A program made the translations under genes and the position numbers. The notes below the pieces were generated by a model. The model searched no databases. It saw nothing but the letters and a program-made list of their open reading frames with translations, and was not told the origin of the DNA. From assembly GCA_963752235.1 (NCBI GenBank), contig CAVVXL010000021.1:9133-73132 (forward strand): a DNA stretch of 64,000 nucleotides. The letters run 5' to 3'. How positions within the stretch are numbered: position 1 is the first letter of the stretch; each line of letters opens with the position of its first letter. Of the stretch, positions 39,727 to 64,000 are shown in pieces. This DNA is from an uncultured Acidobacteriota bacterium. Its GTDB lineage: Bacteria > Acidobacteriota > Thermoanaerobaculia > Multivoradales > UBA5704.

Positions 39727-42700
39727 CTAGGAGGCGGCGCCGGCGCCGCGGGTCCGGAAATCGTCGACGAACCAGCGCAGCACCTCGCGGCAATGCGCCG
39801 CCAGCGCCTGCACCGTCTCGATCTTGTGGAGATTGGTGTTGTGCTCCCACTTGATCAGCAGCTTGTCCTCGATGACGTAGGCGCCGATGGTGATCGGACA
39901 GAGCCGCTTGGTGCCGCGGTCCTGATGGTAGCCGCCGAACATCTGGATCTTGCGCAGCCGCTCGAGCTCCTTGGCGTTGTCGGGGCCGAGGTAGTTGAAG
40001 AAGACCTGCGGCTCGAGCGCCCTGCCCATGTGGTCCATGACGTCCGGGTCGGTCGAAAGATAGCGCAGCAGGCCGAAGCCGGTGCCGCCGTGCGGGATGC
40101 GCCGCAGCTGCCGGTTGAGCTCGCGGGCGCTCGCCACCCAGTCCGGGTCGGGCCCCATGTCGAGGAGCACGGGATAGATGGTGTTGAACCAGCCGATGCT
40201 GCGGGTCAGGTCCATGTCGTCGTAGAGCGCCTCCCGCCCGTGGCCGAGCAGCAGGATGGGGAGCGAGCGTGAGCCGATCCAGCGCTCGAAGGCGGTGAGC
40301 ACGGCGGTGACCAGGACGGCGTCGATCTGCACGCCGAGGAAGCGCGGCACTCGCTGGAGCAGGATCTGGGTCTCCTCGAGGTCGAATTCGGCGGGTTGGA
40401 AGCGCGCCGAGATCCAGTCGTTCGGCCCCAGCTCGTGATCCATCGGGAAGCGCGGCGGGTTGATCGGCGCCTGCGCCAGCCAGTAGTCGAGCTCCTGCTG
40501 CGGCATGCCGCCCGGCTTCGCCCGCGCCGCCAGCCGCTCGGCCCACTGCTGCGCCGAGGTCGTCTTGCGCGGCACGCTGATCGCCTCCCCCGCCTCGAGC
40601 TGCCGGTAGGCGGCGTCGAGGTCGTCGAGCAGCATCTGCCAGGAGTTGATGTCGGCCGCCATGTACTGCCCGGTGATGTGAAGAAAACGAATCTTCCCCG
40701 GTTCCAGATCGAACATAACCGTACGAAGCAGGTTCCCCTCGGCCATTTTGCAGCTTATCACCAAGTCGCGCACGGCCTTCGAGAGGACCACCATCTTGAG
40801 GTCTTCGGCGACCTCCGAGAGGTCGACCCGCAGCAGGTTGACCGGCGCGCCGGGAGGGTCGATGAAGAGTCCGAGCGTCTCTCCCTCGCCGGTGACCCGC
40901 ACCCGCAGGTTGTCGTGGTGGCGCATGACGTGCTCCATCGCCGCCTCGAAGAGGTGGAACTGGAGATCGCCGTCCTTCGGCTCGAACAGCATGCCGATGG
41001 TGTGGTAGTCGGGGTTCGGGTGGTGCTGGTCGAGGAAGTGGAGCTGCGCCGGCGTCCACCCCACCGGGCCCGTCACCGGCCCCTGCTCGGCGACGATCTC
41101 GATGGTCCCGGCGACGGCCGCCAGCTCGGCGATCGTGCGGTGCTGGAAGACGGCCTTGGTGGTGATCCCCATCGCCGCCTTGTTCGCCTTGGTCACCACG
41201 CGGATGACGAGGAGCGAGTCGCCGCCCAGCTCGAAGAAGTCGTCGTTGATCCCCACCCGCTCGAGGGAGAGCAGCTCGGCCCAGAGCGCGCAGAAGAACT
41301 CCTCCTTCTCGTCGCGCGGCGCCACGTACTCGCGGGCCGCGGAGGCGCGGTCGGGGGCCGGCAGGGCGCGGCGGTCGACCTTGCCGTTGGGGGTCAGCGG
41401 CATCGCGTCGAGGAAGGTATAGACGGCCGGCACCATGTACTCCGGCAGCTTTTCTTTCAGATAGGCGCGGAGGTCCGTGACGTTCGGCTTACCGGTACCG
41501 GCGTCGGCGCCGGCGGCGGTCACCAGATAGGCGGCGAGCTGCTTGCTGCCGGGCGAGTCCTCGCGCGCCACCACCACCGACTGGCCGACCGCCGGATGCT
41601 GGTCGAGGGCGGTCTCGATGTCGCCGAGCTCGATGCGGAAGCCGCGCACCTTGACCTGGTGGTCGATGCGGCCGAGGAACTCGATTCTGCCGTCGGCGAG
41701 ATGCCGCGCCAGGTCCCCCGTGCGGTAGAGGCGTGCCCCCGGCTCCTCCACCAGCGCGGCGAAGGGGTGCGGGATGAACTTCTCGGCGCTGAGGTCGGGC
41801 CGCCCGCGGTAGCCGCGGGAGAGGCCCGCGCCGCCGATCAGCAGCTCGCCCGGCACCCCGGCCGGCACCGGCTTGAGCTGGCGCGAGACGAGGTAGATCT
41901 CGGTGTTGTCGAGCGGCTTGCCGATGGTGATCGGCCCCGAGGAGCTCACCTGGTCGAGGGTCGACCAGATCGTCGCCTCGGTCGGGCCGTAGACGTTCCA
42001 CAGCGAGCCGCAGGCGGCGAGGAGCTGGCTCGCGAGGTCGCGCGGCAGCGCCTCGCCGCCGCAGAGGATCTTGAGGTCGCGATCGCCGAGCCACCCCGCG
42101 GCGAGCAGCAGGCGCCAGGTGGCGGGGGTCGCCTGCATGGCGGTGACCCCCTTCTGCTCGAGGACCTCCCTGAGCTTCTCCCCCGCCTGGGTGGTCTCGC
42201 GGGTGACCAGCAGCAGCCGCGCGCCGCAGACCAGCGGCAGGTAGAGCTCGAGCCCCGCGATGTCGAACGAGAGGGTGGTGACGGCGAGCAGGGTGTCGGC
42301 GCTGGTCAAACCCGGCCGCTTGCGCATCGAGCTCAGGAAGTTGACCACCGCCGAGTGCGGGATCTGCACCCCCTTCGGCTTCCCCGTCGAGCCCGAGGTG
42401 TAGATGACGTAGGCGACGTTGCCGGGCTGGACGCCGGCGTCGAGGGGCCCGGCGCTCTCCGCGGCGATCGCCGCCGCGTCGCGGTCGACCGCCACGATCC
42501 GCGCGCCGTGCTCCGGCAGGCGCTCGATCAGTGCACTTTGAGTGAGCAGCACCGGCACCCGCGAGTCGTCGAGCATGTGGGCGAGGCGCTCCTTCGGGTA
42601 CTCGGGATCGAGCGGCACGTAGCCGCCCCCCGCCTTGAGCACCGCGAGCACTCCGGCCAGCATGTCGAGCGAGCGCTCCATGGCGAGGCCGACCAACGTC

Positions 42701-44376
42701 TCCGGACCGACGCCGTGGCGGCGCAGGTGGTGGGCCAGACGGTTGGCCCGCTCGTCGAGCTCGCGGTAGGTCAGCCGGCTTGCCTCGAGCTCGACGGCGA
42801 CGGCGTCCGGGGTCTGGCGCACCCGCTCCTCGATCCAGCCGTGGAGGGTGACGGCGGGGACCTCGGCGGCGGTGGCGTTCCAGTCGACCAGCACCTGCCG
42901 CCGCTCCTCGGTCGACAGCAGCGGCAGCTCCGAGAGGTGGAGGCCGGGCTGCTCGATCACCGCCGCGAGCACCCGCCGGTAGTGGTCGAGCAGGCGCTCC
43001 ATGGTCCCCCGCTCGAAGAGGTCGGTGTTGTACTCGAGGAAGCCGTCGATGCCGGCCGGCGTGTCGGTGAAGTAGAGGGTCAGCTCGGTCTTCGAGGTGC
43101 GGCTGTCGATCGCAACCGGCCGCAGCTTGAGGCCGGGGAGGTCCATTGCCTCGCCCGGCGCGTTCATCAGGATCAGCATCACCTGGAAGAGCGGCGTGCG
43201 CGCCATGTCGCGCGGTGGGTTGAGCTCCTCCACCAGCTTCTCGAACGGCACGTCCTGATGGGCGTAGGCGTCGAGCGACACCTCGCGCTCACGGGTCAGC
43301 AGCTCGCGGAAAGTCGGGTCGCCCGCGAGGTCGCTGCGCAGCACCAGGCTGTTGGCGAAGAAGCCGATCAGCACCTCGATCTCCGGCTGGCGGCGGTTCG
43401 CGATCAGCGTGCCGACCGCGATGTCCTCCTGGGTGGTCCAGTGGTGCAGCAGCGCCTTGAACGCCGCCATCAGCACGATGAACAGGGTCGACCCCTCGCG
43501 CTGCGCGAAGCTCTTGAGGTCGTTCGCCAGACGGTCTCCGAGCACCAGCGGGATGGCGGTGCCGTTGTGGGAGCGCACGGCCGGGCGCGGATGATCGGTC
43601 GGCAGCTCGAGCGGCGGCACCGAGCCGAGCTGCCGGCGCCAGAAAGCGAGCTGCGCCTCGAGCACCTCGCCGGACAGCCACTCCCGCTGCCAGACCGCGA
43701 AGTCGAGGTACTGGATCGGCAGCTCGAGCAGCGGCGAGGGGATGCCGGCGGCGAAGGCGTCGTAGATCGCCGCCAGCTCGCGGGCGAAGATCCCCATCGA
43801 CCAGCCGTCGTAGGCGATGTGGTGCACGTTGTAGTAGAGCAGGTACTCGCGCTCACCGGCGCGGAAGAGCTTGGCGCGCATCAGCGGCCCGAGCGTAAGG
43901 TCGAACGGCTCGCGCGCGTCGGCGGCCGCGAGGCGCAACGCCTCCCCCCAGGCGTCGGCCGGGTCGCTCACCCGCGGCCGGGCGTCGACGTAGGGAACCT
44001 CCATGTCGACCACCTGCGCGATCACCTGCGCCGGCGTCCCCTCGAGCGAGCGGAAGGTGGTGCGCAGCGTCTCGTGACGGCGCACCAGCTCGCGCAGCGC
44101 CTTCTGCATCACCTCGGGGTCGAGCTCGCCCTCGATGCGGAAGGCCTGGGGGATGTTGTACTCCGGGCTCTCCGGCTCGAAGTTGTTGAGGAACCAGAGG
44201 CGCTGCTGGGCGAAGGAGAGCGGGTAGGTCTCGCTCTCGCGCGCCTGACGCGGTATGCGCTTCGTCTCGCCGGCCGGCTCCTTTTCCTCCCGCTGCTTCT
44301 GGAGCTGCTGGAAAAGGAGCATGCGCTTTTCGAGCGGCAGCTCGGCGATCCGCTTGGCGATTTCGGTGTCCGTCAT
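39727..44376 (-). CDS. NRPS, final module C-A-T plus terminal condensation-like (C_T) domain
   Basis: C: PLSFAQQRLWFL, HHIAYDGWS. A: LTYRELDERANRLAHHL, YTSGSTGKPKGV, FDIAGLELYLPL. T: FFELGGDSLLVIRV. C-terminal ~450 aa C-like domain. No thioesterase domain. Confidence 0.9.
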   Translation of the reverse strand: MTDTEIAKRIAELPLEKRMLLFQQLQKQREEKEPAGETKRIPRQARESETYPLSFAQQRLWFLNNFEPESPEYNIPQAFRIEGELDPEVMQKALRELVRRHETLRTTFRSLEGTPAQVIAQVVDMEVPYVDARPRVSDPADAWGEALRLAAADAREPFDLTLGPLMRAKLFRAGEREYLLYYNVHHIAYDGWSMGIFARELAAIYDAFAAGIPSPLLELPIQYLDFAVWQREWLSGEVLEAQLAFWRRQLGSVPPLELPTDHPRPAVRSHNGTAIPLVLGDRLANDLKSFAQREGSTLFIVLMAAFKALLHHWTTQEDIAVGTLIANRRQPEIEVLIGFFANSLVLRSDLAGDPTFRELLTREREVSLDAYAHQDVPFEKLVEELNPPRDMARTPLFQVMLILMNAPGEAMDLPGLKLRPVAIDSRTSKTELTLYFTDTPAGIDGFLEYNTDLFERGTMERLLDHYRRVLAAVIEQPGLHLSELPLLSTEERRQVLVDWNATAAEVPAVTLHGWIEERVRQTPDAVAVELEASRLTYRELDERANRLAHHLRRHGVGPETLVGLAMERSLDMLAGVLAVLKAGGGYVPLDPEYPKERLAHMLDDSRVPVLLTQSALIERLPEHGARIVAVDRDAAAIAAESAGPLDAGVQPGNVAYVIYTSGSTGKPKGVQIPHSAVVNFLSSMRKRPGLTSADTLLAVTTLSFDIAGLELYLPLVCGARLLLVTRETTQAGEKLREVLEQKGVTAMQATPATWRLLLAAGWLGDRDLKILCGGEALPRDLASQLLAACGSLWNVYGPTEATIWSTLDQVSSSGPITIGKPLDNTEIYLVSRQLKPVPAGVPGELLIGGAGLSRGYRGRPDLSAEKFIPHPFAALVEEPGARLYRTGDLARHLADGRIEFLGRIDHQVKVRGFRIELGDIETALDQHPAVGQSVVVAREDSPGSKQLAAYLVTAAGADAGTGKPNVTDLRAYLKEKLPEYMVPAVYTFLDAMPLTPNGKVDRRALPAPDRASAAREYVAPRDEKEEFFCALWAELLSLERVGINDDFFELGGDSLLVIRVVTKANKAAMGITTKAVFQHRTIAELAAVAGTIEIVAEQGPVTGPVGWTPAQLHFLDQHHPNPDYHTIGMLFEPKDGDLQFHLFEAAMEHVMRHHDNLRVRVTGEGETLGLFIDPPGAPVNLLRVDLSEVAEDLKMVVLSKAVRDLVISCKMAEGNLLRTVMFDLEPGKIRFLHITGQYMAADINSWQMLLDDLDAAYRQLEAGEAISVPRKTTSAQQWAERLAARAKPGGMPQQELDYWLAQAPINPPRFPMDHELGPNDWISARFQPAEFDLEETQILLQRVPRFLGVQIDAVLVTAVLTAFERWIGSRSLPILLLGHGREALYDDMDLTRSIGWFNTIYPVLLDMGPDPDWVASARELNRQLRRIPHGGTGFGLLRYLSTDPDVMDHMGRALEPQVFFNYLGPDNAKELERLRKIQMFGGYHQDRGTKRLCPITIGAYVIEDKLLIKWEHNTNLHKIETVQALAAHCREVLRWFVDDFRTRGAGAAS

Positions 44377-44439: not shown

Positions 44440-47400
44440 TCAGGCCGTGCCGCCCTCGAGCTCGGCGAGCAACCTCGCCAGCAGGTCGGTGTCCGCCCGC
44501 TCCAGACTCTTTTGGACGATGGCTTCGGCGAGGCCCGCGACCGTTGGACTGTCGAAGATGACCCGCAGGGGCAGCTCGACGCCGAAAGCTTTCTGCACCC
44601 GGGAGAGCACCTGAGTCGCCATCAGCGAGTGCCCTCCCAGCTCGAAGAAGTTGTCCCTCGCACCGACGCGGTCGAGGTGGAGGACCTCGGCCCAGATCGC
44701 CGCCAGGCGCTCCTGGGCCTCCCCTGCCGGCGCCACGTACTCGCGCCCCAGGTCGGGGCGGCTGCCGTCGGGGGCCGGCAGGGCCTTGCGGTCGACCTTG
44801 CCGCTCGCCGTCAGCGGCAGGCCCGGCAGCGCCATGAACAGCGCCGGGATCATGTACTCCGGCAGCTCGGCGCGGAGGGCCGTGCGCAGGGCGGCGGCGC
44901 TGACCACCTCCTCCCCCGCCGGCACGTAGTAGGCCGCGAGCTGCGGGCTGCCGGGCACGTCCTCGCGCACCGTCACCACCACCTGCGACAGCGCCGGCTG
45001 GCGCGCCAGCACCGCCTCGATCTCCCCCAGCTCGATGCGCAGGCCGCGCAGCTTGACCTGATGGTCGATGCGGCCGAGGAAGTCGACGGCTCCCTCCGGC
45101 AGCAGCCGCGCCAGGTCGCCGGTGCGGTAGAGCCGCGCTCCTGCGTCCCCCGAGACCGGGTCGGGAACGAAGCGCTCCGCCGTCAGCTCGGGCCGCGCCA
45201 GATAGCCGCGCCCCACCTGCACGCCGCCGATCAGCAGCTCGCCCGCAACCCCGATCGGCACCGGCCGCAGCTCGCGGTCGAGCACGTGGATCGCGGTGTT
45301 GGCGACCGGCCGGCCGATCGGCACCAGGTTGCGCCGGTCGAGCGGCTGGCAGGCCCAGAAGGTGACGTCCACCGCCGCTTCCGTGGGGCCGTAGAGGTTG
45401 TGCAGCTCGACCTGCGGCAGGCGTGCGAAGAAGCGCCGCTGGAGCTCACAGGAGAGCGCCTCGCCGCTGCACACCACCCGCACCAGAGTGCCGCCGCACG
45501 CCTCCGCCTCCGGCGCCTCGAGGAAGGCCTGCAACATCGACGGGACGAAGTGGGTCGTGGTGATCCCCTCGCTCGCGATCGTCCGCGCCAGATAGGAGGG
45601 GTCCTGATGGCCCCCCGGGCGCGCCATCACCAGCCGCGCTCCGGTCAGCAGCGGCCAGAAGAGCTCCCAGACCGACACGTCGAAGCTGTAGGGGGTCTTC
45701 TGCAACACCCGGTCGGCTTCCGTCAGCCCGTAGCGCTCCTGCATCCAGAGCAGCCGGTTGACGATCCCCCGGTGGCTGTTCATCGTCCCCTTCGGCCGGC
45801 CGGTCGAGCCCGAGGTGTAGATCACGTAGGCGAGGCTCCCCGCCCCCCCGTCCGCCGCCGGCCGCGCCGCGTCCATGACTTCCAGGTCTTCCGGAGGGGC
45901 CGCCGCCGCGCCGTCGAGCGGCAGGACCTGGCCGCCGTGACCACGGCCGTCGCCGCGCTCGGGGAGGCACGAGAGCAGCCGCTGCTGCGCGAGCACCACC
46001 GGCACCCGGGAGTCGGCGAGCATGAAGACCAGCCGCTCCGCCGGGTAGTCCGGGTCGAGGGGGAGATAGGCGCCGCCCGCCTCGAGCACCCCGAGGAGAC
46101 CGACGACCATCTCGAGCGAACGCTCCGCCAGCACGCCGACGACGGTCTCCGGCCCCACTCCCGCCGCGCGCAGGCGCCGGGCGAGCCGGCGGCTCCGTTC
46201 GGCGAGCTCGGCGTAGGTGAGGCTCTCCCCCTCGTAAACCACCGCCGGCCGCTCCGGGCAACGCTCGACCTGGGCCGCGATCAGCCCGTGCAGGGTAGGA
46301 GAGGCGGGGTAGGCCGCGGCGGTGTCGTTCCATTCGGCGATCTGCCGCGCCTCCTCGGGCGACAGCAGCGGCAGATCGATCACCCGCCGCTCCGGGTCGG
46401 TGGCCGCGGCATCGAGCAGGCGGACGAAGTGCCGGGAAATGCGCAGGATGGTGGCGGCATCGAACAGCTCGGTGCTGTACTCCAGGTCGAAAAGGGTCCG
46501 CTCGTCGTCGACCTGCACCGACAGCGTGAGGTCGAACTTCGACGTGCCGCTGGCGACCCCCATCGGGGTCATCTTCAACCCCTCTTCGGTCGCGAAGTCC
46601 TCGCGCGGGAGAGTGCGGAACGCCAGCATGACCTGGAAGAGCGGCGAGTGGCTGAGGCTGCGCTCGGGCGACAGCTCCTCGACGAGCTTCTCGAAGGGGA
46701 CGTCCTGGTGAGCGTCGGCGTCCAGCACCCGCTCGCGGAGCTCGGCGACCAGCGCCCGTACCGCGGAGTCGCCGGTGACGTCGCAGCGCAGGACCAGGGT
46801 GTTGACGAAGAAGCCGATCAGCGGCTCGGTCTCGACCCTGTTACGGCCGGCGACCGGCACCCCCACGGCGAAGCTCTCCTGGCGGCTGTAGCGGTGCAGC
46901 AGGGCCGCGAAACCGGCGAGCAGGACCATGAACGGGGTCGCCCCCTGGCGGCGGCCGGCGGCCTTGAGCGCCTCCGAGAGCTCGCGGCCGAGGACCAGGC
47001 GTCGCGTCGCGCCGCGCCAGCTGCGCGTGGCAGGGCGGGGCCGGTCGGCCGGCAGCTCGATCAGCGGGGGCAGGCCGCGCAGCCGTTCCCGCCAGTGGGC
47101 GAGCTCCGCCGCGAGCACCTCGCCCTTGAGCCAGCGGCGCTGCCAGTGGGCGAAGTCGGCGTACTGGATCGGCAGCGGCGGCAGCCCCGGCAGTAACGAG
47201 GATGGCGGCTCGCCGGCGAGGGCCGCCGCGTAGAGGGCGGCCATCTCGCGCACGAAGATGGGGATCGACCAGCCGTCGCTGACGATGTGGTGCATCGTCA
47301 CCAGCAGGACGCTCGAACCGCCGTCGAGCCGCAGCAGCGTCGTGCGGATCAGCGGTCCCTGCTCCAGGAAGAAGGGGAGCCCCGCCTCCGCGGCGATCCG

Positions 47401-50400
47401 GCGGCGGGCCTCGGCCGCCCGCCGCTCCGTATCGAGCCCCGCGAGGTCGACGACCGGGAGGAGCACGGGAAGAGCGGGATGGATCAGCTGGCGCGGGCTC
47501 CCGTCCGCCGCCGCGAAGGTGGTGCGCAGGGCCTCGTGACGCCGCGAGATCCCGGCGAGGGCGGCGGCGAGGGCGGGGACGGCCAGCTCCCCTTGAAAGT
47601 GCAGGGCGAGGGGGATGTTGTAGGTGGCCGTCCCGGGCTCCAGGCGGTCGAGGAACCACAAGCGCTGCTGGGAGAAGGAGAGGGGCAGCTCCTGATCGCG
47701 CGGCACCGGCTCGATCCGCGGCGGGCCCGAAACCTCCCCGGCGGCCCCGGCGCGCCGGATCTCCTCGATGGTGCGGGCGAGGCCGGCGAGGGTGGGGTTG
47801 TCGAACAGCGCCCGCAGCGGCAGCTCGATCCGGAACTGCTCGCGCGCCCGGGAGATCACCTGGGTGCCGAGCAGCGAATGGCCGCCGAGGTCGAAGAAAT
47901 CGTCGTGGGCGCCGGCCCGCGGCACCCCCAGCACCTCGCACCAGATCCCCTCGAGGATCTCCTCGGCCGCCGTGCGCGGCGCCACGAAGCCCCCCTCGCC
48001 CTCGGCGTGCTCGTAGGCGGGCTCCGGCAGGGCGCGCTGGTCGACCCGGCCGTTCGAGGTCAGCGGCAGGGCGTCGAGCAGCACCACGGCGGCGGGGATC
48101 ATGTGCTCGGGGAGGCTCTCGCGCAGGAAATCCCGCAGCTCGCGGACGCTGGTCTCCGCCCCCGGGACCAGCGTCGCGTAGCCGACCAGGCGCTTGCCCA
48201 GCCGGCCGTCGCTGCGCACCAGGACGATGCTGTCCTTCACCCTCGGGTGGCGGGCCAGCACCGCTCCGACCTCCGCCGGCTCGACGCGGAAGCCGCGGAT
48301 CTTGACCTGGTCGTCGCGCCTCCCGAGATACTCGAGGTCGCCGGTCGGCAGCCAGCGGCCGACGTCCCCCTGCCGGTACATCCGCAGGCCGGCGCCGTAG
48401 CCGAGGCCGGCGGCGAAGGGATCGGGGATGAAGCTCGCCGCCGTGCGGTCGGGCCAGTTGGCGTACCCCCGCGAGACGTTGGGGCCGCCGATGTAGACGT
48501 CCCCCGCCACCCCCACTGGTACCGGCTCCAGGGCGGCGTCGAGCACGTAGGCGCAGCAGTTGTGGATCGTCCTGCCGACCGGCACCCGGTCGCCGGCGCG
48601 GAAGCGCGGCAGGTCCTCGGCGCCGGGCTCGTAGACGACGGCGGTCACCGTCGCCTCGGTCGAGGCGTAGCTGTTGTTCAGGCGCACGCGGTCGCCGACC
48701 AGCTCCAGCCACTCCGCCACCCGCTCGGGGAGCGCCTGCTCGGTGCCGATGACGACCAGGCGCAGCGGCTCGGGCGGCGGCGTCTTCGCCCGCGCCATCT
48801 CCCCCACCCACTCGTGCCAGTAGGCGGTGGGCAGGTCCATGGCGGTGATGCCGTAGCGCACGATGAGCTCCGCGAGCTCGCCGAACGACGGGAAGAGCCC
48901 CGGCGGCCTCGGCACCACGGCGCCGCCGTGGATCCAGGTCGGGAAGATCTCCTCCGAGGTGATGTCGAAGCTGATCGAGGTGAACTGCAGCGTGCGGTCG
49001 CCGGGCCCCATGCGGTAGGCGAGGCCGCAGGCGGTGACGTGATTGATCATCGCCCGGTGCGGCACGGCGACCCCTTTCGGCCGCCCGGTCGAGCCCGAGG
49101 TGTAGACGATGTAGGCGAGGCTCTCGGGGTCGATCGGCCAGTCCGGCGCGGCGGCGCTCTCGGCCGTAAGGTCGAGGCCGTCCACCGCGACCACGGCCGG
49201 CCCGTCGGCAAGCGTGGGGAGCCGGTCCGCGAGGTGCGACTGGATGAGCAGCACCGGCATGGCGGTGTCCTCGATCATCAGGGCGAGCCGCTCCTGCGGA
49301 TACTCGGGGTCGAGCGGCACCCAGGCGCCCCCCGCCTTGAGCACGGCGAGGAGCACGAGCGGCATCTCGAGCGAGCGCTCGACGCAGACGCCGACCGACA
49401 TCTCGGGCCCCACCCCCAGCCGGCGCAGGCGGCGGGCCAGGCGGTTGGCCTGCGCCTCGAGCTCGCCGAAGGTCAGCGTGCGGCCGCCGAAGAGGACGGC
49501 CGGCGCGTCCGGCGCAAGGCGGGCAGCCTCCGAAACGCGGTCGAGGATGGTCGCGGGAGCGCCGGCGTAGCGCTGGTTCCAGTCGACGAGGATCTGCCGC
49601 CGCTCCTCCGGCAACAGCATCGGCAGCTCGCCGATCCCCCGCTCGGGAGCGGCGAGGACGGCCGCCAGCAGGGTCTCGAAGTGGCCGGCCATCCGCGCCA
49701 CCGTCGCCTTCTCGAAGAGGTCGGTGCTGTACTCGAGATAGCCGGCGATGCCGCCGGGATGCTCGGACATTTCGAGGGTGAGGTCGATCTTCGCCAGCCC
49801 GCGGTCGACCGGCAGCGTCGAGAGCGCCAGCCCCGGCAAGGCCAGCGCGCCGCCAGCGCCGGCGCCGCCGGCGTTCTGGAGGGCGAAGACCACCTGAAAG
49901 ATGGGGTTGTGCGACAGGTTGCGGTCCGGATGCAGCTCCTCGACGAGCTTCTCGAAGGGGAGGTCGGAGTGGGCGAAGACCGCCAGCGACTCGGCGCGCA
50001 CACGGCCGAGCAGGGCAAGGAAGCTCTCTTCGGGCCGCAGCGTCGCGCGCACCAGCAGGGTGCTGGCGAAGCAGCCGACCACCCGCTCGTGCTCGGTGCG
50101 GTTGCGGTTGGCGACCGGCACCCCGACCACGAAATCGTCAGCCCCGGTGTAGCGGAAGAGCAGGAGGTCGAAGAGGGTGAGGAGCGCCATGAACGGCGTC
50201 GCGCCGGCTTCTTGAGCGAGCGCCTTGAAGCGCGCCGCGGCGGGATCGAGGATCTCGAAGCGCACCGCGTCGCCGCGCGGCGACGCCATGTGGCGCCGCG
50301 GATGGTCGGTCGGCAGCTCGAGGACGGTGGGTGCTCCCTCCAGGCGCTCGCGCCAGAAGGCGATCTCCTGGCGCAGGGCCTCGCCGTGGAGCCTCTGCCG

Positions 50401-51075: not shown

Positions 51076-54000
51076 GAACGCTTCTCCTCCGCCAGCATGG
51101 CGCCGAGCAGGGCGTCGAGCTCGGCATCGGACATCGCGGCGGCGCTCTGCTCGATCTCGGTCTCGGTCACTACGGCGGAGTCGACCGCCGATGCCATCCC
51201 CTCGATCGTCCGCCGCTCGAAGACCACCGAGAGGGGGAGGTCGACCCGCAGCACGTCGCGTACCCGGGCGAGGACGCTGGTCGCCTTGAGCGAGTGACCG
51301 CCGAGCGCGAAGAAGTCGTCGCGGACCCCCACCCGCTCGACCCCCAGCACCTCCGCCCAGATCTCCGCCAGGCTGGTCTCGACCGGCGTGCGCGGCGCCA
51401 GGTAGTCCTGATCCCCCTCCGACCGGCTGAGCTCGGGAGCCGGCAGCGACTTCCGGTCGACCTTGCCGTTGGGGGTCAAGGGGAGCCGGTCGAGGAAGAC
51501 GAAGACCGCCGGCACCATGTAGGACGGCAGCGTGCGGCCGAGCACGTCGCGGAGCTTCTCGGCCTTCGGCGCCTCGCCGTTATTCACCTCGGAAGGCCCG
51601 GAGGGCACGACGTAGGCCACCAGCCGGCGGTCGCCGGCGCGGTCCTCGCGGGCGAGGACGACCGCCTCGCGCACGCCGGGAGCCTTGGCGAGCGCCGCCT
51701 CGACCTCGCCGGGCTCGATGCGGAAGCCGCGCACCTTCACTTGGTGGTCGGCCCGCCCCAGGAACTCGAGAGTGCCGTCCGCCAGGTAGCGGGCGAGGTC
51801 GCCGGTGCGGTAGAGGCGAGCGCCGGAACGGGCGCCGACACCGTCGGGAACGAAGCGCTCGGCGGTCAGCTCGGGGCGCCGCAGATAGCCGCGCGCCAAC
51901 CCCTCGCCGCCGATGTAGAGCTCGCCGTGGATGCCGGCCGGGACCGGCTCGAGGTTGCGGTCGAGCAGGTGGATCGCGGTGTTGGCGATCGGGCGGCCGA
52001 TCGGCACCAGCGGGCTCTCCGAGTCGAGGGCGGTGACCGGCTGGAGCGCCGACCAGACGGTGGTCTCGGTCGGCCCGTAGAGGTTCCACAGGCTCCCCGT
52101 GGGACCGACGCGGGCGAGCAGCTCGCGGGCGAGGTCGGCCGGCAGCCCCTCGCCGCCGCAGAGCGCCACAAGCCCCGCCTTCCCCGGCCACCCCGCCTCG
52201 AGCAGCATCTTCCAGGTGGCGGGGGTCGCCTGCATGGCGGTCGCCCCCGAGGACTCGATCAGCGCCGCCAGGCGGGCGCCGTCGGTCGCGACGTCGCGCC
52301 CTGCCAGCTCGACCCGCGCTCCCACCGCGAGCGGCAGGAAGATTTCGAGGACGGCGATGTCGAACGACACCGTGGTGACGGCGAGCAGGACGTCGCTCGC
52401 CGCCAGCCCCGGACGGCGGGCCATCGAGCCCAGGAAGTTGACGGCGCCGCGGTGGCGCACCTCGACCCCCTTGGGGCGGCCCGTCGAGCCCGAGGTGTAG
52501 ATCACGTAAGCGGTGTTCTCCGCCCCCGCGGCAGGCCCGGAGAAGGCCGCGGTCGGCGCGTAGGCCGCTTCGATCTCGACCACCTGGGCGGCGCTCGCCG
52601 GCAGGTTCTCCCGCAGGGCGCGTTCGGTGATCAGCACCGCCACCTGCCCGTCCGCGAGGACGAAGGCGAGGCGCTCTTTGGGATAGGAGGGATCGAGCGG
52701 CACATAGGCACCCCCCGCCTTGAGCACGGCGAGAAGGGCGGCCGGGAGGTCGAGCGAGCGTTGCAGGCTCACCCCCACCAGCACCTCGGGTCCTACGCCC
52801 AAGCCGCGCAGGCGGGCGGCCAGCGTCTCCGCCCGCGCGTCGAGCTCGTCGTAGGTGAGCGACAGCCCCTCGCAGCTCACCGCCACGGCGTCGGGGGTCC
52901 GCCGCCTCGTCGCCTCGAACAGCTCGTGGAGGCAGGCGGCCGCCGGCTCGGGCTCGGCGGTGTCGTTCCAGTCGATCAGCGTCTGCCGGCGCTCCGCCTC
53001 GGTCAGCAGCGGCAGCTCGGAGAGGCGCAGGCTCGGGTTCTCGACCGCCCCCGCGAGCAGGGTCTGGAAGTGGTCGATCATCCGGAGGATGGTCGTGAAG
53101 TCGAACAGGTCGCTGTTGTACTCCCAATGGAAGACCGCGTGCAGGTCGGCGGCACTCGCCTGGAGCCCCACCCGCTGCTCGGCGCGCGGCACCATGATGA
53201 CGTTCATGTCCATCTTGGCGGAGCGGTTGCCGCGCACCAGGAACATCCCCTTGAGGCCGCCGAAGTCGAGGTCGGGGATCGCCGCGTCGTGGAAGTTGAA
53301 CATCACCTGGAAGAGCGGGTTGCGGCCGAGCTGGCGCTCCGGGCGGATCTCCTGCACCAGCCGCTCGAACGGGGTGTCCTGATAGACGTAGTTCTCGAGG
53401 CTGGTCTCGCGCACCCGCCCCAGCATCTCGCGGAAAGTGGGGTCACCGGTCATGTCGCCGCGGATCACCAGGCTGTTGACGATCATGCCGAGCAGGGTCT
53501 CGGTTTCCTTGGCGCGGCGGTTGGCGTTGTTGGTGCCGAGCAGGATGTCCTCCTGCCCGGTGTAGCGGCTGAGCAGCGAGAAGAAGCCCGAGAGCATCGT
53601 CATGTAGAGGGTGAAGCCCTGGGCGCGGCCGAACTTGCGCAGCGAGTCGTAGAGCTTCGGCGGCACCGGGAAGATCGTGATGTCCCCCTTGAACGATCCG
53701 CGGGCCAGGCGCGGGCGATCGGTCGGCAGCTCAAGGAAATGGGTGCTGCCGGCGAGCTTCTGGCGCCAGTAGGCCATGATCTTTTCCATCACCGGCCCCT
53801 CCATCCAGCCGCGCTGCCAGGCCGCGAAGTCGGCGTACTGGATCGGCAGCTCGGGGAGGGGGGACGGCAGGCCGGCGGCGAAGGCGGCGTAGAGCGCCTT
53901 CATCTCGCGCAGCAGGACGCCGAACGACCAGCCGTCATGGACGAAGTGGTGCTCGACCTGGATCAGCTCGTGGAGGTCGGCGTCGAGGCGCAGCAGCCGC

Positions 54001-57000
54001 CAGCGCAGCAGCGGGATGCGCGCGATGTCGAAGGCGACCTGAGTCGACTCGAAGACCAGGCGCTCGGACTCCTCCTTGCGGATCGCCTCGGGGAGGGCCA
54101 CGAGATCGATCAGCGGCATGTCGACCGCCATGCCGGGGTGGATCACCTGCACCGGCCGGCCGTCGACGTCGGGGAAGCTGGTGCGCAGCACCTCGTGGCG
54201 GTGCACGATCTCCTCCATCGCCGCCTGGAAGGCGCCGACGTTCAGCTCCCCTTGGAGCCAGAGGGTGAACTGGAAGTTGTAGGCGATGTTGCCGCCGGCG
54301 GTCAGCCGGTTGAGGAACCACACCCGCTCCTGCGGGAAGGAGAGCGGGATCGGCCGGTCGCGCGGGGCGAGGCGGATCGGCGGCAGCTCGGGGAGCTCGC
54401 TTTCGGCGCTCCCCCGCTCGGCCTTCTCGATCGCCTCGGCGAGCTCGGAGATCGTCGGCTTCTTGAACACCTCGACCAGCGACAGCTCGACCTGGAAGAC
54501 CTGGCGCACCCGCGCCGCCAGCTTCGCCACCAGCAGCGAATGGCCGCCGAGCTGGAAGAAGTCGTCCTCGATGCCGATCCGCTCGACCCCCAGCAGCTCG
54601 CTCCATAGATCGACCAGCACCTCCTGGATCGGGTTGCGCGGGGCGACGTAGTCGGCGTCGACGTCGGGGCGGCCGATGGGGGCCGGCAGGGCCTTGCGGT
54701 CGAGCTTGCCGCTGGCGTTGAGCGGCAGCGCCTCGATCACCACGAAGGAGGCCGGCAGCATGTAGTCGGGGAGCGTCCCCTTGAGCGCCGTCCTGAGGTC
54801 GCCGGTCTGCAGCGCGGCGCGGTCGGCCGGCACCACCCAGGCGACCAGCCGCTTCTCGGCGTTCTCGCCGTAGAGGGCGACGACGGCGTCGCGCACGCCG
54901 TCGAGCTTGCGCAGGGCGGCTTCGATCTCGCCGAGCTCGATGCGGAAGCCGCGCACCTTGACCTGGTGGTCGACACGGCCGCGGAACTCGAGCTCGCCGT
55001 CGAGGCGCAGACGGGCGAGGTCGCCCGTCCGGTAGAGGCGCTCGCCCGGCGCCGCCCCGTCCGCGGGGGCGAACGGGTTGGGGACGAAGCGCTCGGCGGT
55101 CAGGTCGGGGCGGCCGAGATACCCCCGGGCGAGGCCGGCGCCGCCGAGCCAGAGCTCGCCGTCGATCCCCGCCGCCCGCAATTCGAGATCCCGCCCCACT
55201 ACGTAGGTGCGGGCGTTCGCCACCGCGCGGCCGATGGCGATCCGCTGCGGCGCCGGCGTCTCGGCGGGCGCCGTCAGATCGAACAGGGTGCTGACGATCG
55301 TCGCCTCGGTCGGCCCGTAGGTGTTGACCAGGCGGACCCGCTCCCCCACCCGCCGCCGCCAGGCCGCCAAACGCTCGGTGAGCGCCTCCTCGCCGCCCAG
55401 GATGACCAGGCGCAGCGCCGCGGGAGCGGCCAGCCCCTGCGAGTCCATCTCGGCCGCGAGCTCGTGCCAGAACGCCGTCGGCAGGTCGAGGACGCTGATC
55501 CGCAGCCGCCCGACCTCGCGCAGGAAGCCGTCGAGCGAGCCGATCATCGCCTCGTCGCGGAGCACCAGGGCGCCCCCCGCCACCAGGCAGGGGTAGATCT
55601 CCTCGGCGCTAGTGTCGAAGCTGACCGAGGCGAACTGGAGGGTGCGGTCGGCGGGGGTGATCGCGTACTGCGCGACGGCGCTCCGCACGTAGGTCACCAG
55701 CGCCGAGTGCGGCACCAGCACTCCCTTCGGCCGGCCGGTCGAGCCCGAGGTGTAGATCACGTAGGCCGGGCTCTGCGGCAGGGCCGACGACGGAGCTTCG
55801 CCGCTTCCCGCCGCCGCGGTCCCCGCGGTATCCGCGATGGCGGCCCAGTCGGCGTCGAGGCGGACGATCTTTGCCGAGGTCTCCGGCAGGCGGTCGGCCG
55901 TGCGCTCCTGGGCGAGCACGATCCGCGCCCCCGAGTCCTCCAGCATGAAGGCCATCCGCTCGCGCGGGTAGTTGGGGTCGAGCGGCAGGTAGGCGGCGCC
56001 CGCCTGGAGCACTCCCAGCATGCCGACCACCATCCCGGGAGAGCGCTCGACGCAGAGGGCGACGACCGATTCCGGCCCCACCCCCAGGCTCCGCAGGTGG
56101 CGCGCCAGCGTCCCGGCGCGGGCCGCGAGCTCGCCGTAGGTGAGCGTCCCGTCTCCCGCCGTGGTCTCGACCGCGGGAGCGTCCGGGGTGCGCGCCGCCT
56201 GCGCCGCGAACAGGCGGTCGATCGTGGTCTCGGCATCAACCCGGGCCGCGCCGCGGCCGGCGGCGAGGATCTCCCCCCGTTCCTCGGCGGTGACCCCGAG
56301 GAGCGCGCTCAAGCGACTCTCGGGGTGGGTCGCGATCCGCTCGAGGAGAGCCATGGTCCGCGCCAGGATGCGGCGCGCCGCCTCGGCGCTCAGGCGGGTC
56401 CAGTGATAGTTGATACGCAGCGTCAACCGGTCCTCGCCCGGCATGGCGTAGAGGGTGAGCGGGAAGTTTCCCGACTCCGACAGGTGGACCTCCCGGATCT
56501 GGAGGTCGGAGCCGGCCTCTCCCTGGCGCAGGGCGTCGACCGGATAGTTCTCGAACACCAGCACGGATTCGAAGAGGATCCCCTTGCGTCCCACCTCGCT
56601 CCAGGCCATCACCTGGTCGAGCTGGCTGTGCTCGTAGTCGCGCTGCTCGATCTGCTGCTCCTGGAGCGCCTTGAGCCAGGCGGCGACCGTCGAGTCCGGC
56701 CGGTTCTCCACCCGCACCGGCAGCAGGTTGATGAACAGCCCGACCATCGACTCGACCCCTTCGATCTCCGGCGGCCGTCCCGAGACGATGCCGCCGAAGA
56801 CGACGTCATCTCCGGAATTGCCGTCGCCGAAGGAGCCGAGCAGCAGGCTCCAGGCCCCCTGCACCACGGTGTTGAGGGTCACCTGGTGGCGGCGCGCGAA
56901 GCTGCGTAGCGCGGTCGCCAGCTCGGTGGGAGCCTCGAGGACCTCCTCGCGGGCCACCCAGCCGGTGGGATCGCCGCCGGTGCCGCTGCCGTCGAAGGGC

Positions 57001-57638
57001 AGGGGGGGCGCGGCGGTGACGCCGGCGAGCGTCCGGCGCCAGAAATCCTCCGCCTGCGCCGGGTCCCTCCCCTGCGCCCAGGTGATGTAGTCGCGGTAGG
57101 GGCGGGGCGCCGCGAGACGCGGCTCCGTACCCTTCAGCAGCGCCGCGTAGAAGGCGAAGACGTCGGCGAGGATCAGCCCCATCGACCAGCCGTCGACCAC
57201 CAGGTGATGGAAGCTCCACACCAGCTTGTGGACCCCATCCTCCCAATGGATCATGGCGACGCGGGTCAGCGGCGGCTTGCCGAGGTCGAAGCCGCGGTCG
57301 TGGTCCTCGCGCAGGAAATCGGCGAGCCGCGCCTCGCGCTCGGCCGCCGGCAAGGCGCGCCAGTCGTGCTCCTGCCAGGGGAGGACGGCGTCGCGGCGCA
57401 CGATCTGGAGCGGCTGCTCGCGGCGCTCCCAGACGAACTGGGTGCGCAGGGCCGGATGGCGCTCCAGCACCCGGCTCCAGGCCTGCCGCCAGACGGCGAG
57501 GTCGAGCTCGCCGGCCAGGGTGGAGACGTATTGATCGAAGTAGACCTGCCCCTTCTCCCCGGAGAACAGGAGATGGAACAGCATCCCCTGCTGGGAGGCG
57601 GAAAGCGGGTAGATATCTTCAACGTTCTGCTTGCTCAT
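51072..57638 (-). CDS. NRPS, two modules (C-A-T-C-A-T)
   Basis: ATG at 57638 preceded by gagga. IYPLSASQQGMLFH, HHLVVDGWS, HHFVHDGWS. Two AMP-binding cores (YTSGSTGRPKGV). T motifs LGGHSLLVAKL and LGGHSLKATSV. Confidence 0.9.
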   Translation of the reverse strand: MSKQNVEDIYPLSASQQGMLFHLLFSGEKGQVYFDQYVSTLAGELDLAVWRQAWSRVLERHPALRTQFVWERREQPLQIVRRDAVLPWQEHDWRALPAAEREARLADFLREDHDRGFDLGKPPLTRVAMIHWEDGVHKLVWSFHHLVVDGWSMGLILADVFAFYAALLKGTEPRLAAPRPYRDYITWAQGRDPAQAEDFWRRTLAGVTAAPPLPFDGSGTGGDPTGWVAREEVLEAPTELATALRSFARRHQVTLNTVVQGAWSLLLGSFGDGNSGDDVVFGGIVSGRPPEIEGVESMVGLFINLLPVRVENRPDSTVAAWLKALQEQQIEQRDYEHSQLDQVMAWSEVGRKGILFESVLVFENYPVDALRQGEAGSDLQIREVHLSESGNFPLTLYAMPGEDRLTLRINYHWTRLSAEAARRILARTMALLERIATHPESRLSALLGVTAEERGEILAAGRGAARVDAETTIDRLFAAQAARTPDAPAVETTAGDGTLTYGELAARAGTLARHLRSLGVGPESVVALCVERSPGMVVGMLGVLQAGAAYLPLDPNYPRERMAFMLEDSGARIVLAQERTADRLPETSAKIVRLDADWAAIADTAGTAAAGSGEAPSSALPQSPAYVIYTSGSTGRPKGVLVPHSALVTYVRSAVAQYAITPADRTLQFASVSFDTSAEEIYPCLVAGGALVLRDEAMIGSLDGFLREVGRLRISVLDLPTAFWHELAAEMDSQGLAAPAALRLVILGGEEALTERLAAWRRRVGERVRLVNTYGPTEATIVSTLFDLTAPAETPAPQRIAIGRAVANARTYVVGRDLELRAAGIDGELWLGGAGLARGYLGRPDLTAERFVPNPFAPADGAAPGERLYRTGDLARLRLDGELEFRGRVDHQVKVRGFRIELGEIEAALRKLDGVRDAVVALYGENAEKRLVAWVVPADRAALQTGDLRTALKGTLPDYMLPASFVVIEALPLNASGKLDRKALPAPIGRPDVDADYVAPRNPIQEVLVDLWSELLGVERIGIEDDFFQLGGHSLLVAKLAARVRQVFQVELSLVEVFKKPTISELAEAIEKAERGSAESELPELPPIRLAPRDRPIPLSFPQERVWFLNRLTAGGNIAYNFQFTLWLQGELNVGAFQAAMEEIVHRHEVLRTSFPDVDGRPVQVIHPGMAVDMPLIDLVALPEAIRKEESERLVFESTQVAFDIARIPLLRWRLLRLDADLHELIQVEHHFVHDGWSFGVLLREMKALYAAFAAGLPSPLPELPIQYADFAAWQRGWMEGPVMEKIMAYWRQKLAGSTHFLELPTDRPRLARGSFKGDITIFPVPPKLYDSLRKFGRAQGFTLYMTMLSGFFSLLSRYTGQEDILLGTNNANRRAKETETLLGMIVNSLVIRGDMTGDPTFREMLGRVRETSLENYVYQDTPFERLVQEIRPERQLGRNPLFQVMFNFHDAAIPDLDFGGLKGMFLVRGNRSAKMDMNVIMVPRAEQRVGLQASAADLHAVFHWEYNSDLFDFTTILRMIDHFQTLLAGAVENPSLRLSELPLLTEAERRQTLIDWNDTAEPEPAAACLHELFEATRRRTPDAVAVSCEGLSLTYDELDARAETLAARLRGLGVGPEVLVGVSLQRSLDLPAALLAVLKAGGAYVPLDPSYPKERLAFVLADGQVAVLITERALRENLPASAAQVVEIEAAYAPTAAFSGPAAGAENTAYVIYTSGSTGRPKGVEVRHRGAVNFLGSMARRPGLAASDVLLAVTTVSFDIAVLEIFLPLAVGARVELAGRDVATDGARLAALIESSGATAMQATPATWKMLLEAGWPGKAGLVALCGGEGLPADLARELLARVGPTGSLWNLYGPTETTVWSALQPVTALDSESPLVPIGRPIANTAIHLLDRNLEPVPAGIHGELYIGGEGLARGYLRRPELTAERFVPDGVGARSGARLYRTGDLARYLADGTLEFLGRADHQVKVRGFRIEPGEVEAALAKAPGVREAVVLAREDRAGDRRLVAYVVPSGPSEVNNGEAPKAEKLRDVLGRTLPSYMVPAVFVFLDRLPLTPNGKVDRKSLPAPELSRSEGDQDYLAPRTPVETSLAEIWAEVLGVERVGVRDDFFALGGHSLKATSVLARVRDVLRVDLPLSVVFERRTIEGMASAVDSAVVTETEIEQSAAAMSDAELDALLGAMLAEEKRS

Positions 57639-63600: not shown

Positions 63601-64000
63601 GCGCAGCAGCACTCCCATCGACCAGCCGTCCGAGATCACGTGGTGCATGGCGAGCACGAGGACCCATTCGTCGAGCCCTGCCCGCAGCAGCAGCATGCGC
63701 AGCAGCGGCCCATGCTCGAGGTCGAACGGGCGCCGCGCCTCGATCCCCGTCAGCCGGGCTTCCTCGGCTCCCCGCGACGGCTCCGGCAGGTCTGCCAGAT
63801 CGACCAGCGGCAAGGCCGCCGGCACCCACGGCGCGATCACCTGCACCGGGCCGTTCGCGCCGTCCGCGAACCGCGTCCGCAGCGCCTCGTGGCGGCGCAC
63901 GATCTCGCTCAACGCGCCGGCGAGCAGCTCCGGCTGCAGCCGCCCCCGCACGCGGTAGGCCATCGGCATGTTGTAGACCGCCGTTCCCGGCTGCAGGCGG
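57652..64000 (-). CDS. NRPS, two modules (partial C, then A-T-C-A-T). N-terminus lies beyond window end
   Basis: The frame stays open to position 64000 (…YNMPMAYRVRGRL is a C-domain motif). HHVISDGWS, HHIVADGWS. YTSGSTGRPKGV and YTSGSTGQPKGI. T motifs LGGHSLLATQV and LGGHSLLATKV. Confidence 0.9.
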   Translation of the reverse strand, partial: RLQPGTAVYNMPMAYRVRGRLQPELLAGALSEIVRRHEALRTRFADGANGPVQVIAPWVPAALPLVDLADLPEPSRGAEEARLTGIEARRPFDLEHGPLLRMLLLRAGLDEWVLVLAMHHVISDGWSMGVLLRELEALYAAALAGLPSPLPELPLQYADFAVWQRDRLRGEELERQVAYWRERLAGHPPVLALPIDRQRPAVQTFRGAVEALELDRETSGRLRSLSRRNGTPLFMTTLAGFLALLQRYTGQEDLLVGTPAAGRNRMELEGLIGFFVNTLVLRTDAAGDPAFAELLGRVRETALGAYAHGDLPFERLVEEVAPERNLSHSPLFQVLFILQTELTMAPPRLAGLGMEPLDLAIQSAKFDLTVGLAETDDGLIGALEYNLDLFEVATARRMAGHLRILLSGAAANPEARLSALPLLSAAERGELLEWNDTAREYPQHPPGALVHEQFAAWARRRPQAPAVVMGQRILTYGELEARSNRLAHHLRSLGVGPDVAVGICAERTPERVVGILAALKAGGAYASFDPAYPRERLAFLFADARVPVLLTEHRFLDRLPDSGATVIRLDRDLERLPGDESRPPAVEVAAENLAYIIYTSGSTGRPKGVAIPHRGLLNLVAWHHETYGVTPEERGTQVASPAFDVAIWELWPLLAAGGATYIPDEETRLSPTRMLRWWAEEGITLAFLPTPLADAILSEEIPAGSRALQLRYLVVGGDRLHRAPRPGTPFQLSNIYGPAEHSVVTTMALVPPAPPEAAAARAPAIGRTIANTRVYVLDSRQQQVPVGVAGELYVSGIGLARGYLWRPEWTAERFLPDPWGGGHGEPGARMYRTGDLVRWLPGGELDFLGRIDHQVKVRGMRVELGEIEAILARHPVVAETVTLVREDRPGDRRLTAYVVAGKAAWPSVDELRGFLERELPSYMVPQDWVFLDALPLTPNGKVDRRALAAPDRRSEATVAPRTPLEQLLADIFCQVFALPAVGVYDDFFALGGHSLLATQVVSRVRRGLGIDLEIRSLFEEPTVDGLARRIEAERYRAPGAGAPPLRPVPRQEGTRLPLSFAQQRLWFLDQLEPGSLYNIPALFRVEGRADVGALAAALAEIVRRHEALRTHFVRVGDEPVQVISPADPAPGVVLPLIDLAALPAGRRARESDRLAGEETERSFDLARGPLARFALVRLAAEEHSLFLSLHHIVADGWSMGVLLRELGMLYAGFATGAAPRLAELPVQYADYALWQREWLRGEALAREVDYWRGQLGGAPAILDLPTDRPRPAVQSFQGKAVNGRLSRPLSARIDSGAREMGGTPFIVLMAAFQALLGRYSRQQEINVGTPIAGRTRMEIEGLIGFFVNTLVLRTSLAANPSFAELVGRVREVALEAHAHQHLPFEKLVEALEPERSLSHSPLFQVMFVLQNAPMAFSLPGLQLSSFLPALKTAKFDLLLALGESGEGIVGGLEYSTDLFDTTTATRLLEQLEVLLEGALNEPATRLADLPLLTAAARAQALTEWNDGAAVVPQVTQAERFTAIAARFPERVALTFQGEDLTYAETELRANRLAHHLRRRGVGPGVVVGICLERSLTAPVAVLAVFKAGGVFLPLDPTYPPERLAFMLADAEAPVLLTEGRLLGLLPEFAGHLLAMETLAPELEREPATALPSAVGMTELAYLIYTSGSTGQPKGIAMTHGALANLIAFHLERATGAEARTLQFSPLSFDVCFQEIFSTWARGGTLVLISDSDRRDPRALLEILERERIGRLFLPFVALNQLAEEAERLGARPSHLREVITAGEQLQSSEAIVGWFRRLEGCTLENHYGPSELHAVTSYLLPADPGDWPPLPPVGRTIPNTRLYVLDAARQPVPLGIPGEIFLAGAQMARGYLGRPDLTADRFIPDHLGGQPGERLYRSGDLARYLPDGNVEFLGRVDLQVKVRGFRIELGEIEALLAEHPAVREAVVAAPEIGGLKRLVAYIVPVEAAAGTLELKGFLEDRLPAYMVPSHFMLLERLPMAASGKVDRNALPAPEGYRLETGEEFVAPRTPLEELVAEIWAEVLGVDRVGIHDNFWDLGGHSLLATKVLARVNGSLGVELPLQVLFKSPTIAGFTAAIGESLLTAELDDLELEETD

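Follow-up and report, generated by a model that had tools for sequence, protein, structure and literature searches.

How does a peptide leave an assembly line that carries no release domain of its own? The question is raised by the last part of a 64,000-nucleotide stretch of DNA (the window; contig CAVVXL010000021.1 of assembly GCA_963752235.1) from an uncultured soil Acidobacteriota bacterium, in which four consecutive nonribosomal peptide synthetase (NRPS) genes, called N1 to N4 here, end in a domain of the condensation (C) superfamily. An earlier note on this DNA had taken that domain for a terminal condensation domain (C_T) and had proposed a linear or amide-released peptide. Our analysis points to a terminal domain of the epimerization (E) type, named E* below, that has lost both catalytic residues. 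We favour the reading that N1 to N4 belong to a colinear type I NRPS operon of a Thermoanaerobaculia-like bacterium, of which they form the downstream part, and that the peptide would be released in trans after the dead E* (probability about 0.55).

Gene and domain organization of the NRPS operon

The four genes are intact long open reading frames (ORFs), all on the minus strand and head to tail, with a G+C content at third codon positions (GC3) above 0.9 in a window of about 70% G+C. Pfam domains and core motifs give N1 (57652..>64000, the 3' part of the first NRPS gene, in an open frame) the organization (C)-A-T-C-A-T, where A and T stand for adenylation and thiolation domains. N2 (51072..57638) and N3 (44440..51075) both read C-A-T-C-A-T, the first C domain of N2 being of the DCL type, and N4 (39727..44376) reads C-A-T, with a glycine code in its A domain, followed by the extra domain. 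Condensation, AMP-binding, AMP-binding_C and PP-binding families are matched in each protein (E-values 1e-11 to 1e-205). The motif map of N1 to N4 contains seven HHxxxDG, seven A3, seven A8 and seven carrier-serine motifs, for a content of seven A, seven T and seven C domains plus one additional C-superfamily domain; repeating C-A-T modules with the core motifs HHxxxDG, A3/A8/A10 and GGxS define a type I modular NRPS. The domain strings of the earlier note stand for all modules, with two amendments: the last domain had to be reassigned, from C_T to an E type with a dead active site, and the C domain at the head of N2 is of the DCL type.

Minus-strand translation from base 64000 starts with RLQPGTAVYNMPMAY..., the end of condensation motif C1, so the window edge cuts N1 some 20 residues inside a C domain, and the start of the gene lies beyond that edge, as had been noted. 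The tight coupling of the genes was also confirmed at each junction: the TGA of N1 is followed after 13 nt by the ATG of N2 at 57638, with a GGAG ribosome-binding site; N2 and N3 overlap in GTGA; N3 and N4 are separated by 63 nt containing AGGAG; and 62 nt separate N4 from the next gene, which encodes an MFS exporter.

N1 ends with a T domain and an acidic Leu-rich tail of about 50 residues (...ELDDLELEETD), with no E domain. C-terminal tails are present on N1, N2 and N3, where they are acidic or helical, those of N2 and N3 being of the ...LLxxLLAE.. type. N-terminal heads are present on N2, N3 and N4, and the heads of N3 and N4 are long and helical.

The terminal domain of N4 is a predicted non-catalytic E-type domain

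E* occupies positions 39730..41103 on the minus strand, that is, residues ~1092-1549 of N4. Compared with all PDB chains, it gave ten matches, all of them E domains, with E-values from 3e-54 to 9e-37; PvdL was the best (3e-54), and the others included bacitracin synthase 3 (BacC), GrsA, TycA and TycB. The HHxxxDG motif is absent, as GQYMAADINSW aligns with IHHLVVDGVSW of PvdL, and the catalytic Glu is replaced by Leu, LLGHGRE aligning with LEGHGRE. We aligned the window protein with 49 orthologs, which are 61-100% identical to it over the E* region. The second His is Tyr or Phe and the Glu is Leu in the window protein and in 49/49 of these orthologs. In the same alignment the mean identity of E* is about 75%, compared with 82-87% for its C, A and T neighbours in N4. 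N4 orthologs carry the TIGR01720 family label in JGI annotation.

Loss of both residues is rare among E-type domains at large. In a survey of 335 such domains, taken from the best 150 cluster representatives drawn from 1.8 billion proteins, both catalytic residues were retained in 308. The few domains with the same substitutions (GHF.xADIGSW and LLGHGRE) were the closest matches to E*, and belong to proteins of the same C-A-T-E* build and about the same length (~1550 aa). Judged from these alignments, E* is a conserved non-catalytic E-type domain. The earlier statement that no E domains are present thus fails for the fold of the terminal domain and holds for catalysis.

The assignment to C_T was rejected, as the PDB matches are all E domains, the C_T domain of TqaA is not among them, and the catalytic His is lost; TqaA C_T was found among the matches of the first C domain of N2. 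The amide release that C_T would have provided falls with it. A role of E* as recruiter of the nearby hydroxylase was also considered and discarded, the hydroxylase not being conserved together with E*.

Two features of the surroundings of E* bear on its role. It is preceded by a Gly module (code DILQLGVIWK), and it ends about 20 residues past the domain core, without a communication-mediating (COM) donor tail. GrsA and TycA have a COM-donor extension of about 35 residues at their C-terminus. The lack of such an extension on E* supports N4 as the last subunit.

The head of N2 is an orphan DCL-type condensation domain

Six of the seven C domains have an LCL-type C1 motif (LSFAQQRLWFL) and are 37-53% identical to one another. 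The first C domain of N2 (56301..57638, minus strand) has a COM-acceptor-like head (MSKQNVEDIYPLS...) and shares just 25-31% identity with these six. Its best PDB matches are C domains that act downstream of E domains, with McyB first (2e-107), followed by BacC, PvdL, TycB1 and SrfA-C (1e-65 to 1e-90), whereas matches to LCL domains are at ~1e-24 or weaker (TycC6, 8e-24). On these comparisons the N2 head is of the DCL type, and no other head in the window combines this type with a COM-acceptor-like start. Like N1 itself, its closer homologs (57-76% identity) end in a T domain. Dual E/C domains are recognized by a second N-terminal His motif, HH[I/L]xxxxGD (PMC1894796). This motif is not present in the N2 head, which has FHLLFSGEKGQ at the corresponding site, and a dual E/C function was not retained as an explanation.

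Predicted substrates and an unusual A domain in N3

Stachelhaus codes were extracted by mapping the A domains on GrsA, using a reference sequence that yields the code DAWTIAAICK. Pairwise alignments were unstable for some A domains; for the first A domain of N3 (N3-A1), a pairwise GrsA alignment had given DIEDVISVTR, and the code retained, DIEDVGSVTR, comes from a larger alignment. In N1, the first A domain (DVWFVGIVVK) reads tentatively as hydrophobic or Leu-like and the second (DVQFIAHAVK) as Pro. The codes of N2 read as Lys-like (DTEDIGTIVK) and Gly (DILQLGLVWK), those of N3 as Lys-like but atypical (N3-A1) and Ser (N3-A2, DVWHVSLVDK), and that of N4 as Gly. The Pro, Gly and Ser readings (N1-A2, N2-A2, N4-A1 and N3-A2) follow the standard code tables.

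The two Lys-like readings are based on resemblance to DTEDVGTVVK and DIEDVGSVVK, which were predicted as Lys codes by the authors who described them for ScoA, MmaA and Rv0101 (bioRxiv 10.1101/121228). We infer from the codes a predicted C-terminal heptapeptide hydrophobic-Pro-Lys-like-Gly-Lys-like (or Arg-derived)-Ser-Gly. The code extraction that the earlier note had called for thus gives basic residues and no chelating ones. Among relatives the residue of N3-A2 varies between Ser, Thr and Gly and that of N2-A2 between Gly and Thr; the terminal Gly of N4 is invariant.

N3-A1 (48046..49578, minus strand) departs from the consensus at two sites: the A5 motif is NSYASTE in place of NxYGPTE, and the catalytic Lys of A10 is replaced by Arg (NGRVDQ). 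Neither YASTE nor the A10 Arg is present in the approximately 900 A domains of the NRPS set that was retrieved (0/888 for Arg). N3-A1 is nevertheless the best-conserved domain of N3 among orthologs, with 71-80% identity versus 50% for the second A domain, which is swapped. The ortholog in locus L085, one of the related loci described next, retains the A10 Lys.

The cluster in related genomes

N4 is 100% identical to one database record, and about 45 orthologs match it in length and are 68-89% identical to it. All lack a thioesterase (TE) domain, and those that are named are labelled as metagenome-assembled genomes (MAGs) of Thermoanaerobaculia or Acidobacteriota. The comparison of gene order covered six related loci, namely L001, L084, L085, L086 and the distant pair L090/L091. 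The order dimodule-dimodule-C-A-T-E*-MFS was found in the five loci with visible upstream genes, and L086, which is cut just upstream of N4, has the MFS gene directly 3' of N4. In 6/6 loci, including a distant one, N4 thus closes the series of NRPS genes and the MFS gene follows it.

The genes that accompany this core differ. A hydroxylase and an SGNH hydrolase are present in the window and in L001, where both directly follow the cluster and are co-directional with it. L084 has an SGNH gene alone, L085 and L086 have a methyltransferase, and L090 has an unknown 416-aa gene and a MacB-type ABC exporter.

The upstream extent of the line was estimated from N1 orthologs at 74-76% identity in two GTDB MAGs of uncultured Acidobacteriota. 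In MFD09368 the frame continues upstream past the position of the window edge and is open there for at least 3.3 modules. In MFD04580 the N1 gene, broken by assembly frameshifts, can be traced through six additional modules up to a loading module of the A-T type at the N-terminus (MVEVISRS...LLLVEWCDT...). Judged from MFD04580, N1 has about eight modules and the whole line about 13; the earlier count of at least seven modules holds for the window, and the line is predicted to be much longer. No orthologs of the loading-module head of this relative were found in a metagenome scan.

In the same MAG, the loading-module gene is immediately preceded by another multimodular NRPS gene (L083, 1..10007), whose C-terminal tail nearly matches that of N1 (...AIGESLL...). 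Two different upstream subunits might feed one N2-N4 line, or this might be a partial duplication.

The cluster family is widespread in uncultured Acidobacteriota and Thermoanaerobaculia. The best named matches are annotated as 'amino acid adenylation domain-containing protein' in MAGs of these groups, and cultured or characterised NRPSs (Nostoc NosC, myxobacterial synthetases) are only about 45-50% identical to the window proteins. Literature searches found no described product for this acidobacterial cluster group. Homology and literature searches thus bear out the earlier opinion that the product is unlikely to have been described.

Downstream and convergent genes

The MFS exporter gene (38279..39664, minus strand) matches MFS_1/MFS_3 and the H+ antiporter subfamily, with distant similarity to EntS and Mef; it adjoins the N4 ortholog in 6/6 of the related loci. 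A GC-rich hairpin with an interrupted T tract lies 3' of its stop codon (38222..38282, minus strand; -35.8 kcal/mol, z -4.5) and is possibly a partial terminator. The next gene (35880..38207, minus strand) encodes a CBM9/DUF5916 protein that is predicted to form an outer-membrane barrel, as it has a Sec signal peptide and ends in an aromatic beta-signal (...GYAFLY); the gene adjoins the MFS gene in four clusters (window, L001, L085 and L086). A strong hairpin with a T5 tail, placed between the convergent operons (35808..35882, minus strand; -46.8 kcal/mol, z -7.3), is the likely operon terminator. A scan for consensus promoters and terminators gave no hit; both hairpins came from reading and folding the sequence. 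The earlier note had placed an exporter and a terminator after the NRPS genes, which agrees with the MFS gene and with the stable hairpins that follow it and the next gene.

The convergent plus-strand genes start with a predicted Fe(II)/2-oxoglutarate L-arginine-type beta-hydroxylase of the VioC/OrfP/GntD family (32994..34109; likely true start at the Met at ~33087), which was the VioC-like hydroxylase of the earlier note. The family assignment comes from NCBIfam and PDB comparison. In NCBIfam the GntD model scores 465.3 bits (cut-off 345), and the VioC model scores 416.3, just below its cut-off of 418.6. The best PDB matches are the L-Arg hydroxylases OrfP (5e-88), VioC (8e-87) and CmnC (3e-76); AsnO (3e-33) and lysine hydroxylases (2e-20 to 2e-25; Lys 3-hydroxylase 2e-25) are weaker. 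The protein matches VioC, OrfP, CmnC and the enduracididine hydroxylases GntD and MppO over its full length at ~45-50% identity, and has the HxE...H iron ligands (WHTEDAFHP and AVHGR). Partner enzymes known from these pathways, namely a VioD-type pyridoxal phosphate (PLP) enzyme and MppP/Q/R-type enduracididine enzymes, were absent from the window ORFs scanned. Plain beta-hydroxy-Arg would therefore be the likelier product. With two Lys-like A domains and a dioxygenase that matches L-Arg hydroxylases at 5e-88, a hydroxylated basic residue in the peptide, as suggested earlier, is plausible.

Two SGNH/GDSL-like hydrolase genes follow on the plus strand. Hydrolase 1 (34134..34898, probable start M37) has no evident signal peptide; it is supported by GxSLT and DxxHP blocks, a PDB match to 4S1P (2.6e-16) and weak DUF4886 and Lipase_GDSL_2 matches, and has orthologs in L001 and L084. 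Hydrolase 2 (34936..35790) is a paralog at 54% identity with a lipoprotein signal (LLGC).

On the other side of the hydroxylase gene lies a divergent pair of citrate synthase genes (30426..31562, minus strand; 31553..32872, plus strand), one fused to a MerR-type helix-turn-helix (HTH). The same pair adjoins the orthologous NRPS cluster in L086, which reflects either conserved synteny or a functional link.

Several genes that might have been expected were not seen. Pfam scans of the large ORFs of the window detected no TE, reductase (R), penicillin-binding protein (PBP)-like, P450 or phosphopantetheinyl transferase (PPTase) gene, and a six-frame search of the window detected no MbtH motif. Neither the scanned window ORFs nor the 10 kb downstream of N4 in the five relatives checked for a PBP-type TE (L001, L084, L085, L086 and L090) contained a recognisable beta-lactamase/PBP-like or alpha/beta-hydrolase gene.

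A model with release in trans, and its alternatives

In the favoured reading N1, which in a relative has about eight modules and an A-T loading start, would hand its chain to N2 through its COM-like acidic tail and the DCL-type head. The chain would then pass from N2 to N3 and from N3 to N4 through the helical docking tails and heads, and N4 would add Gly as the last residue. The tails on N1 to N3, the heads on N2 to N4 and the lack of a COM-donor tail on E* fit this colinear order. The product would be a cationic peptide about 13 residues long, and the modules in the window encode no epimerised position. The dioxygenase probably provides beta-hydroxy-L-arginine as a free amino acid to a cationic module; VioC acts on the free amino acid to make beta-hydroxy-Arg. 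E*, in which epimerisation would not be possible, may be retained as a structural partner of the last T domain. A separate enzyme would probably act in trans to free the peptide from its thioester, most likely by hydrolysis; within the window the cytoplasmic SGNH hydrolase is the sole candidate, and an enzyme encoded elsewhere is the alternative. The peptide would leave the cell via the MFS pump and through the predicted DUF5916 barrel in the outer membrane. The order of the subunits and the routes of release and export, like any bioactivity, are what we infer from the features described above.

Several points weigh against this scheme. No Arg or hydroxy-Arg code is recognisable among the A domains of the window, and the hydroxylase is missing from 4/6 related loci. 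The module of N3-A1, with Arg for the catalytic Lys, might be unable to load itself. The DCL-type head of N2 is preceded by a subunit without an E domain, and the count of upstream modules relies on relatives whose N1 orthologs share only 74-76% identity with it. For release the window offers no more than a candidate, and SGNH genes are not beside the cluster in L085, L086 and L090; with no such gene at three of the six related clusters, an SGNH hydrolase as the universal release factor was discarded. Finally, the inactive E domain of LgrA, discussed next, signals transfer of the chain to the following subunit, and by that precedent N4 might be followed by another.

Three known systems resemble the end of N4. 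The linear gramicidin synthetase LgrA has the organization F-A-T-C-A(Gly)-T-E(inactive) (PMC10510592). As in N4, a Gly module is followed by a catalytically inactive E domain at the C-terminus of the subunit; the difference is that the LgrA chain continues to LgrB and is released by the LgrD reductase, whereas after N4 the next gene is already that of the exporter, and the window line has neither an R nor a TE domain. The window also lacks the formylation domain and the alternating active E domains of the linear gramicidin system. In glycopeptide NRPSs the X domain of module 7, whose catalytic His is replaced, is a non-catalytic scaffold beside the last T domain (Rausch 2007). It resembles E* as a C/E-superfamily domain without catalytic His beside the last T, and differs in belonging to a C-like clade (4TX2 is not among the PDB matches of E*), whereas E* belongs to the E clade and has no domain after it. 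The X domain is followed by a TE domain and recruits P450s; a P450 gene was not detected among the window ORFs. In the third system, stand-alone PBP-type TEs (SurE, WolJ, Ulm16, PenA) act in trans on NRPSs that lack a TE; they require a C-terminal D-residue or Gly, and WolJ accepts Gly (PMC11735501). The window line likewise has no cis-TE and is predicted to end with Gly; it differs in its Acidobacteriota host, its dead E* and the lack of a PBP-like gene in the window and in five relatives.

This last comparison leads to a different ending, in which a gene located outside the window would supply a stand-alone cyclase or thioesterase, for instance a type II TE or a PBP-type TE resembling SurE or WolJ. 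This enzyme would close a macrocycle, head-to-tail or through a side chain, at the C-terminal Gly. Terminal Gly, T-E architecture and lack of a cis-TE would all suit a PBP-type TE. The search of window ORFs and of 10 kb downstream in five relatives speaks against it, as does the origin of the PBP-type examples named above in Streptomyces-type producers, and we regard this ending as unlikely. The LgrA to LgrB precedent gives rise to another possibility, namely that N4 is not last and that E* partners a DCL-type C domain, either in an NRPS encoded elsewhere that has a real release domain or in the N2 head, which would imply the order N1-N3-N4-N2 or re-entry of the chain into N2 (iterative use). 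N2 alone has a DCL-type, COM-acceptor-like head that no E domain of N1 justifies, and a relative has further NRPS genes upstream of its loading-module gene. However, E* stops about 20 residues after its core with no COM-donor tail, the COM-donor-like tail of N1 suits the N2 head, N4 directly precedes the exporter in 6/6 loci, and the order N1-N3-N4-N2 would still finish in a T domain without TE. Such a hand-off appears quite unlikely.

E* might also be an ending or recycling device of a kind not described so far: a non-catalytic platform holding the Gly-thioester for a trans hydrolase or cyclase or for coupling to the MFS pump, or a means of handing the chain back to N2. We consider this a long shot; if the hand-back version were true, N2-N3-N4 would be used more than once. 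A siderophore, which the earlier note had mentioned, would use the hydroxylated residue as ligand, the MFS pump as an EntS-like exporter and the TonB-type receptors of the window for uptake. The pump is weakly similar to EntS and to the bacillibactin exporter, and TonB-receptor fragments with a ferritin-like gene lie 25 kb away. Against this, no catechol, hydroxamate or beta-hydroxy-Asp/His modules are predicted, the peptide is predicted to be Gly/Pro/Lys-rich, the hydroxylase is of the Arg type rather than Asp/His and is missing from most related clusters, and the TonB genes are fragmentary and unlinked, with no receptor gene inside the cluster. The siderophore proposal is very improbable, and release in trans from N4 remains the reading that we prefer.

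Other genes in the window

The TonB-dependent receptor pieces (9244..13464, minus strand) comprise CarboxypepD_reg plus Plug and a separate barrel, with the ferritin-like gene between them; the receptor is possibly disrupted. Tandem TIR-NB-ARC-TPR (STAND-type) genes at 2269..4758 and 4883..7519 (both plus strand) have the architecture of anti-phage or signalling NTPases. A resistance-nodulation-division (RND) efflux operon with OEP, HlyD and AcrB is present at 16475..22680 (plus strand); its AcrB frame is apparently split (18288..22085 and 21853..22680), pointing to a frameshift or to faulty assembly. The NACHT-HEAT repeat protein gene at 22720..26271 (minus strand), where the local G+C is 0.62-0.65 compared with about 0.70 elsewhere, may have been acquired horizontally.

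Significance of the cluster family

This cluster is an uncharacterised member of a well-known, ordinary kind of NRPS, and no feature of it has been shown to work in a new way; known NRPS biochemistry is unchanged unless the release step turns out to be new. Three variant features are worth note for NRPS enzymology. The T-E* terminus is natural and conserved, without any release domain; a DCL-type C domain is fed by a module that lacks E; and an A domain is strongly conserved despite Arg at the catalytic lysine of A10. Acidobacteriota are abundant in soil and rarely cultured, and to our knowledge almost none of their natural products have been characterised. This cluster family recurs across dozens of MAGs, its core conserved and its residues variable, and is a reasonable target for obtaining the ~13-residue cationic peptide, either by synthesis based on the sequence prediction or by heterologous expression.

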